The position numbers and the translations under genes are program-made. This document shows, piece by piece, positions 6,904 to 6,927 of a DNA stretch of 64,000 nucleotides (within the stretch, counting starts at the first letter, position 1; every line of letters begins with the position of its first letter). The notes beneath the pieces were generated by a model, which searched no databases, was not told the origin of the DNA, and saw only the letters and a program-made list of their open reading frames with translations. This DNA comes from a virus (Duplodnaviria > Heunggongvirae > Uroviricota > Caudoviricetes), in the IMG/VR virus record IMGVR_UViG_2700989507_000006. One strand, given 5' to 3'.

Positions 6904-6927
6904 TCAACAAATGACTAGCGGTAGAAT
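6904..6927 (+). promoter_or_regulatory. late-promoter motif (tcaacaaatgactagcgg + TAGAAT)
   Basis: Shares the CAACAA(A/G)TGACT-N5-TAnAAT pattern found upstream of five other structural operons in this window; ~30 nt before ORF start at 6957. Confidence 0.5.

Follow-up and report, generated by a model that had tools for sequence, protein, structure and literature searches.

Several well-known phages express their late morphogenesis and lysis genes from promoters that combine a recognisable -10 hexamer with a missing or poor -35 and that rely on a phage factor, among them the C-dependent promoters of Mu, the Ogr/Delta-dependent promoters of P2 and P4, and the late promoters of T4, which are served by gp55, gp33 and gp45. 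These systems differ from that of phage P1 in their factors, in the sequences bound and in the positions of those sequences, and T4 replaces sigma itself; the P1 box is centred near -22, overlaps the spacer and needs the host co-activator SspA. Here, we analyse an element that recurs in 64,000 nucleotides of a Caudoviricetes virus (IMG/VR record IMGVR_UViG_2700989507_000006), a stretch referred to throughout as the window, and argue from its sequence that the element corresponds to the late-promoter regulon already described for P1. As six of its sites are annotated P1 late promoters, the main finding is already known; what is new is evidence for two or three unannotated copies, together with incremental improvements to the annotation.

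In P1, Lpa is a sequence-specific DNA-binding activator that is thought to act via the RNA-polymerase-associated host protein SspA, which itself does not bind late-promoter DNA, both statements following the summary of Hansen et al. 2003 that is given in PMC1891329. Late transcription needs SspA as well as Lpa (PMC8201110), and the promoter box has been assigned to Lpa (PMC10695390, PMC1891329). The P1 pair has been cited as a precedent for the MglA-SspA/PigR system of Francisella, where a polymerase-bound protein of the SspA type provides the contact for a DNA-bound activator (PMC1891329), although that system controls a bacterial virulence regulon and has no sequence relation to the P1 box. 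The P1 late-promoter facts used below were taken from GenBank record AF234172 and later papers. The record annotates 11 late promoters (LPmat, LPpro, LPlyz, LPdar, LPs, LPsit, LP23, LP26, LPpmgL, LPhot and LPpac), each consisting of a 9-bp '-22 region', a 4-nt spacer and a -10, with a longer spacer at LPhot.

The window and its relatives

The window is part of a P1-like phage-plasmid. By BLAST, the whole of it is collinear with P1 (AF234172) from about 84543 down to 20773, in reverse orientation and mostly at 98% identity, with local replacements in the sim/immunity region, the C-segment of the tail fibre and the IS1 region. Over 6 kb around the finding, identity to P1, P7, SJ46, RCS47 and other Punavirus members is 97.6-98.0%, the same region is found in hundreds of P1-like plasmids, and the plasmid pAVS0578-B is a relative that matches at 100% over 1.5 kb and at 97.5-99% elsewhere. 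Variation among relatives was scored by BLAST-anchored variant tallies, using 78-80 close IMG/VR relatives that are 97-100% identical; the divergent lineages compared at upfC came from a plasmid collection, and genome contigs gave three close relatives.

The recurrent motif and the annotated late promoters

An earlier, sequence-only reading of the window had described the pattern CAACAA(A/G)T(G/T)ACT at four sites upstream of structural operons. The motif is indeed present at all four, and non-randomly so, but two of the starts given were off by one and the first two bases proved variable. The exact pattern (CAACAARTKACT-N5-TAVAAT) matches twice, at 6905-6927 and 27209-27231, where 100 shuffles lead one to expect 0 matches. 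With up to three mismatches there are six matches, all on the + strand, against 0.51 expected, and no shuffle got to six; beyond the exact two, this set holds the sites at 38933, 47193, 20491 and 8610, of which 38933-38955 (TCACAAATGACT...TAGAAT) and 47193-47215 (TGACAAGTTACT...TACAAT) have two mismatches each, at the first two bases.

Scores were obtained from a 23-nt position weight matrix (PWM) built on the ten P1 sites of canonical spacing. When the window is scanned with this matrix, the top seven matches fall at 20.7-26.6 bits and the next at 14.7, the seven being the six annotated promoters in Table 1 with positive-strand boxes plus the site at 8610-8632. Leave-one-out scores of the known sites run from 14.1 to 23.3 bits (E 0.0003-0.7), with the single exception of LPpmgL, and the analytic E per window for the unannotated sites is 0.0034 at 8610, 0.43 at 21625 and 1.2 at 20491. 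A match at 54541-54563 (14 bits, within lydA) and others below 13 bits were treated as chance. Six of the seven sites that the sequence-only reading had listed coincide with features of AF234172. Of the three that it had set down as weaker variants, those at 54229-54251 and 63781-63803 are strong (LPdar and LPlyz), while 20491-20513, at 13.1 bits, lies within chance by score; the reading had missed the strong site at 8610-8632, a weak one at 21625-21647 and, on the - strand, LPpmgL, which is annotated and divergent.

The architecture of the sites is uniform. In all six annotated copies and at 8610 the 9-bp box AAGTnACTT (the '-22 region') stands exactly 4 nt 5' of the -10, and the boxes at 20491 (AAATAACCT) and 21625 (AAAGGACTT) deviate once each at an otherwise well-conserved position. 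In a pooled set of 27 orthologous established sites from three lineages, which also supplied a pooled matrix, the -10 keeps T at its first position in 24, and A at the second and T at the sixth in every one. The proposed lack of a -35 box is borne out, the best match to TTGACA at spacers of 15-19 nt reaching 1-4 of six bases at all nine sites, and the placement upstream of operons likewise, each site lying 19-87 nt before the first gene of a morphogenesis or lysis operon. The genes downstream were assigned from their synteny with P1 and from family searches. Set against P1, the six annotated sites are at most one base off and share the box, the 4-nt spacer, TAnnnT, the absence of a -35, the downstream operons and, in data from P1, late kinetics; the differences are that three motif sites (20491, 21625 and 8610) have no annotation in AF234172, that the -10 of LPpmgL is altered and that the sequence upstream of LPsit is unrelated.

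Table 1. Late promoters, candidate late promoters and the LPsit inverted repeat in the window; box and -10 in capitals, spacer in lower case
Feature	Position (strand)	Sequence	Score (bits)	Genes and first start codon	Relation to AF234172
LP26	6905..6927 (+); 19-mer 6909-6927	caAC AAATGACTA gcgg TAGAAT	25.5	26-25-7-24-6-5; gene 26 ATG 6957	identical
LPpmgL (doubtful)	6899..6917 (-)	TAGTCATTT gttg ATTATT		divergent, shares LP26 box	annotated
Gene-7 internal site, late-promoter-like	8610..8632 (+)	caAC AAGTGACTG gtga TAACCT (CAACAAGTGACTGGTGATAACCT); -10 at 8627-8632	21.0-22.4	45 nt inside gene 7	unannotated
upfC candidate	20491..20513 (+)	ccAC AAATAACCT aagt TAAAAT; -10 at 20508-20513	13-15	upfC (PAAR spike tip) and upfB; upfC GTG 20546	unannotated
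ppfA candidate	21625..21647 (+)	taAC AAAGGACTT catt GATAAT; -10 at 21642-21647	13.7-14.7	spanin genes ppfA/mlp; ppfA ATG 21667	unannotated
LP23	27209..27231 (+); 19-mer 27213-27231	caAC AAGTGACTT tcaa TAAAAT	25.8	23-22-21-pmgG-bplB-pmgF; gene 23 TTG 27283	identical
LPsit	38933..38955 (+); 19-mer 38937-38955	tcAC AAATGACTA ctcg TAGAAT		pmgC-tub-pmgB-sit-pmgA-bplA-16; pmgC ATG 38987	identical
Inverted repeat at LPsit	38946..38980 (+)	5' arm, spacer and -10 (CTCGTAGAATCGG); 3' arm with pmgC Shine-Dalgarno (GATTCTACGAG)		
LPs (Ps)	47193..47215 (+); 19-mer 47197-47215	tgAC AAGTTACTT ctct TACAAT	26.6	tail-fibre operon R-S-U; R ATG 47246	one spacer substitution
LPdar	54229..54251 (+); 19-mer 54233-54251	tgAG AAGTTACTT tgca TACCAT	20.7	lydA-lydB-hdf-darA-ddrA-ddrB; lydA GTG 54280	identical
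LPlyz	63781..63803 (+); 19-mer 63785-63803	taAC AAGTGATTT gcat TATCCT	24.1	lyz-lydD-lydE	identical

Among the 78 IMG/VR relatives, LP26 varies in the spacer and at the degenerate middle base of the -10 only. Near LP23 we also noted a palindrome, ACACAAGTGCCTTGTGT, at 27253-27269 (+) in the gene 23 leader, 22 nt 3' of the LP23 -10; it is one base off a late box with its AC and can form a small hairpin, and JK004 and the Salmonella plasmids, described in the next section, have a different hairpin there.

Conservation across lineages and the probable recognition element

Homologues of Lpa in the phage collection fall into three groups: the P1-like proteins, at 98.7-100% identity over full-length matches, that of Cronobacter phage JK004, at 67%, and that of D6, at 31%. 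The Salmonella P1-like plasmids pCVMN1543 and p21-SA00706-0, which have about 72% nucleotide identity to P1, encode an Lpa that is 72% identical. In JK004 and both plasmids the P1-type motif lies upstream of the orthologues of mat, R, 23 (the LP23 position), pacA, prt, 26, lyz, pmgC and lydA, and these lineages share with P1 both the AC-AAGTGAC box and the operon layout. They also have a second late-type site, TCACAAGTGATCTG.TTTACGAT (16 bits), in the lyz-ssb intergenic region, directed towards ssb and divergent from LPlyz (JK004 83281-83303 (+); pCVMN1543 72171-72193 (-); L176 3403-3425 (+)), to which nothing corresponds among the top matches of the window.

D6 presents a different picture. 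The P1 matrix finds almost nothing in this genome, where a different shared element, AAATCACA-N7-TAnnnT, which we derived from the D6 sequence alone, stands before the same kinds of operon, preceding prt, lydA, R, pmgB, 23, 26, ddrB, darB, orf16, mat, gene 7 and upfC (examples, all on the - strand, lie at 45491-45511, 25221-25241, 38115-38135, 56898-56918 and 67393-67413). A late motif is therefore found before orthologous operons in D6 as in P1, whereas the element itself differs, along with an Lpa of 31% identity; that the box differs where Lpa differs is as expected if Lpa reads the box.

The pooled set also suggests where the recognised element ends. The dinucleotide that precedes the 9-bp box has A as its first base in 27 of 27 sites and C as its second in 24 of 27, conserved like any position of the box, and positions 8-9 of the box itself are less conserved. 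The element read by the activator is thus probably an asymmetric 11-mer, AC-AAGTGACTT, rather than the 9-bp palindrome alone, and the conservation of AC across the 27 sites justifies the longer motif of the sequence-only reading. If the 11-mer with its AC is what is recognised, then the annotated LPpmgL would be spurious; its sequence is no more than the imperfect LP26 palindrome read backwards. The -10 of LPpmgL reads ATTATT in the window, compared with AATATT in P1 and about 60% of relatives, and the kinetics of pmgL in P1 (see below) are intermediate.

Late kinetics and the predicted role of Lpa and SspA

Expression kinetics were taken from published P1vir RNA-seq (PMC8201110 Table S1), and so describe P1 itself and not the phage of the window. 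The 35 genes of the annotated late operons average a logFC of 4.2 at 10 min and gain a further 6.9 by 30 min, compared with a mean of 8.3 at 10 min and a gain of 3.4 for 23 early genes. For the lysis/dar operon, which had been predicted to be late, this timing was already known from P1 through LPdar and LPlyz.

We consider it very probable that the recurrent motif is the signature of late promoters in a P1-type phage, promoters which the P1 literature describes as activated by Lpa and SspA; the proposal of activator-dependent late promoters of the P1 Lpa type agrees with the annotation that the same sequences have in P1. For the present phage, work on P1 (PMC10695390, PMC1891329, PMC8201110) predicts that transcription depends on Lpa and SspA and begins about 7 nt past the -10. 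In outline, and as established for P1, each site has a sigma-70-type -10 (TAnnnT) with no -35 and a box 4 nt upstream of that -10, centred near -22. The early-expressed phage protein Lpa (gp10) would bind the box and, via SspA associated with RNA polymerase, would recruit or activate the host enzyme, and since activation would run through Lpa, box and SspA, the morphogenesis and lysis operons would come on only after Lpa has built up.

Could the sites instead be sigma-70 promoters of the ordinary kind, or repeats of a signal for recombination or packaging, with no activator involved? The -10 hexamers are of the sigma-70 kind, and a 'TGACA' present in several sites resembles a -35 hexamer. Only about 12 nt separate this TGACA from the -10, however, which is too short a distance for a -35 role, and no site has a usable -35. 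The downstream genes are hardly expressed at 10 min, a time of full activity for sigma-70 early promoters, the motif changes along with Lpa in D6, and the literature assigns the box to Lpa (PMC10695390, PMC1891329), so that we regard an activator-free origin of the motif as extremely improbable.

Some observations do weigh against placing these sites in an Lpa regulon of this phage. The lpa locus corresponds to P1 89991-90443 and the window to P1 20773-84543, so lpa lies beyond it, and its presence in this phage is presumed from close relatives such as pAVS0578-B, which carry the gene. LP23 is termed merely a 'predicted late promoter' in the P1 record as well, and LPpmgL, although annotated, does not fit the motif, with a leave-one-out score of -1.2 bits and no conserved AC. 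Others concern the candidate sites and are given with them below. Nothing was found that contradicts the late-promoter identity of the main motif.

Candidate additional members of the regulon

The regulon probably also includes two weaker sites, at 20491 and 21625, and may include the one inside gene 7. In AF234172 no promoter is annotated upstream of upfC, a sigma-70 scan of the + strand upstream of upfC or ppfA found no promoter, and neither LPupfC nor LPppfA occurs as a name in the literature searched.

The site at 20491 lies 32 nt before the upfC start codon, in an intergenic region of about 100 nt whose neighbour on the - strand is the early, C1-controlled uhr-hrdC-dmt operon. Family searches identify UpfC as a PAAR protein, PpfA and Mlp as Rz-like spanins and UpfA as a member of the Gp49 family, so that the earlier label 'PAAR/spanin operon' was apt. 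A structural role for UpfC and UpfB was predicted in PMC9024508, and in cryo-electron microscopy of the P1 baseplate UpfC forms the tip of the spike and UpfB a tripod (PMC12810830; bioRxiv preprint of 2025); late expression is therefore to be expected. It is also what the P1vir data support, although the record does not annotate it: upfC, upfB, ppfA, mlp and upfA have a logFC of 4.1-5.6 at 10 min and rise by a further 5.7-6.95 by 30 min, which is inside the range of the 35 late genes and wholly outside that of the 23 early genes (Mann-Whitney p = 2e-5). The upfC-upfA operon is late.

That the 20491 site drives this operon is less certain than the timing itself. The likeness to the motif could be due to chance, with the operon made late by some other unrecognised promoter or by a weak constitutive -10 whose output grows with gene dosage once lytic replication has taken place. 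At 13.1 bits the site has an E of about 1.2 per window, within chance by the motif alone, and its box varies among close relatives, which have AAATAACCT, AAACAACCT, AAGTAACCT or AAATAACTT, with CCACAA and TAAAAT invariant; AAACAACCT, found in about 20 of 80, is without the otherwise well-conserved T at box position 4. JK004 and the window, moreover, agree at 14 of 23 positions across the site, near the level of the surrounding intergenic sequence. Several observations speak for the site. A sequence resembling a late promoter stands 29-31 nt 5' of the upfC start in JK004 and in both Salmonella plasmids (CGAC GAATAACAA gggg TAGCAT; CCAC TAATGACAA gacy TACAAT); with the window included, the distance from motif to start codon is 29-32 nt in all four lineages. 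In the window the site is on the correct strand, in a region with no promoter of the sigma-70 type. In a five-way alignment with P1 included, C-AC, AAT-A and TA--AT are invariant, these being the informative columns of the motif, and the spacer and upstream flank have diverged; the five sites score 11.6-15.4 bits with the pooled matrix. In D6, the upfC site ranks 12th genome-wide with a D6 matrix trained without it, right after the gene-7 site and before the gap to noise. The kinetics match those of late and not early operons, and since the divergent uhr-hrdC-dmt operon is early in the same RNA-seq data, gene dosage alone is insufficient. A chance likeness is accordingly the less probable account, though not a negligible one, and we favour the 20491 site, as a candidate, for the operon's most likely promoter, with a confidence that is reasonable but well short of firm.

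In the same intergenic region, the C1 operator Odmt (ATTAGAGCAAT core) at 20447-20463, 28 nt upstream of the candidate, is the best-conserved block in all lineages.

The site at 21625 runs from the stop codon of upfB to a point 19 nt short of the ppfA start codon. Its score is modest in the window and higher at the corresponding place in JK004 and the Salmonella plasmids (16.9-20.1 bits), which have better versions of it (TGAC AAATGACCT ggcg GAAAAT; TGAC ATATGACyT gtca GAAAAT). Across these lineages the spacer has changed but the box and the -10 have been kept, as would be expected if the site were a functional late promoter, and we infer that the site is a candidate promoter for the spanin genes.

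The site at 8610 poses the opposite problem, being as strong as the best known sites (E = 0.002-0.003 per window) and lying within coding sequence. P1 has the identical sequence there, and the site occurs in every one of 80 relatives, which at 97-100% identity show little variation. The site may be a further member of the regulon, but the scales are about level between this and the view that it is no promoter at all, its likeness to the motif being fortuitous or driven by the protein-coding sequence, possibly with Lpa bound to no consequence. The latter view draws on its position 45 nt inside a conserved open reading frame, after which there is no in-frame start with a ribosome-binding site; on the conserved N-terminus of gp7, from which it follows that the annotated start is right; on the lower scores of JK004 and the Salmonella plasmids, about 10-15 bits; on the lack of annotation in P1; and on the RNA-seq, where no consistent step appears at gene 7 along 26-25-7-24-6-5, a rise of about 1 log2 being seen in the wild type and not in the dksA host. 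Such a score, however, is hard to come by in a window of this size, and the surrounding peptide, which is absent in D6, is poorly conserved, yet the core AC-A--TGAC-GGTG-TA---T is kept in JK004 and the two Salmonella lineages, with AC, TGAC and TA---T maintained through N/T/I and L/F changes. In D6, too, toxin-antitoxin genes stand between genes 25 and 7, and gene 7 there has a D6-type late motif of its own.

A hairpin and a mosaic joint at LPsit

In T4, early read-through transcripts of genes e, soc and 49 fold so that the ribosome-binding site is occluded, and late transcripts start inside the hairpin. LPsit resembles this arrangement, with its -10 in the 5' arm and the pmgC Shine-Dalgarno in the 3' arm of a 13-bp inverted repeat that folds at -19.8 kcal/mol. 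The 13-bp helix is kept in JK004 and the Salmonella plasmids, where the loop has diverged and one G-C pair has changed to A-U in a compensatory manner (TAGAAT/ATTCTA to TAAAAT/ATTTTA); with three distinct sequences, the covariation is not statistically significant. The segment before the presumed late start pairs with the ribosome-binding site more strongly than shuffled sequences do in each of three lineages (p = 0.043, 0.010 and 0.023). A transcript started at LPsit would lack the 5' arm, whereas a read-through transcript would fold and hide the ribosome-binding site, and the conserved hairpin may in this way limit translation of pmgC to transcripts from the late promoter. Unlike the T4 case, a hairpin of this type is clear at one promoter of the family only, and we know it here from sequence.

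Whether an anti-Shine-Dalgarno arm is a general feature of the family's late promoters, an idea suggested by eye at LP23, LPdar and several JK004 and D6 sites, was also considered and the idea rejected, as a comparison with 300 dinucleotide-shuffled versions of the pre-start segment gave p<=0.05 at no more than 6 of 41 sites (LPsit in three lineages, LP26 of JK004, and R and pmgB of D6).

LPsit also abuts a mosaic joint. Homology between the window and P1 starts at 38935, two bases 5' of the LPsit box, and if LPsit works in both phages, then nothing upstream of about -26 would be needed, which fits the absence of -35 or upstream elements. On the far side of the joint, at 37882-38934, the P1 sim genes are replaced by unrelated sequence, which holds two hypothetical open reading frames in pAVS0578-B.

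Concluding remarks

The main finding is the rediscovery, from raw sequence, of a textbook regulon of a model phage; it will hold little surprise for a P1 specialist, but it does show that promoter regulons can be recognised from sequence by a first-stage reader. The further proposals, taken as a whole, are that the regulon is larger than 11 promoters, taking in upfC-upfB, ppfA/mlp and gene 7, that its element is an 11-mer, that LPpmgL is spurious and that the LPsit hairpin limits pmgC translation, a combination which we advance tentatively and would put at slightly under an even chance of holding in full. Such by-products may be useful for engineering and annotating P1-like phage-plasmids, a group that commonly carries resistance genes. 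They improve the search pattern by adding the conserved AC, flag LPpmgL as doubtful and show that box and Lpa change together in D6, and they offer candidate promoters for the spanin genes and for the upfC-upfA operon, which has none upstream of upfC in the P1 record.

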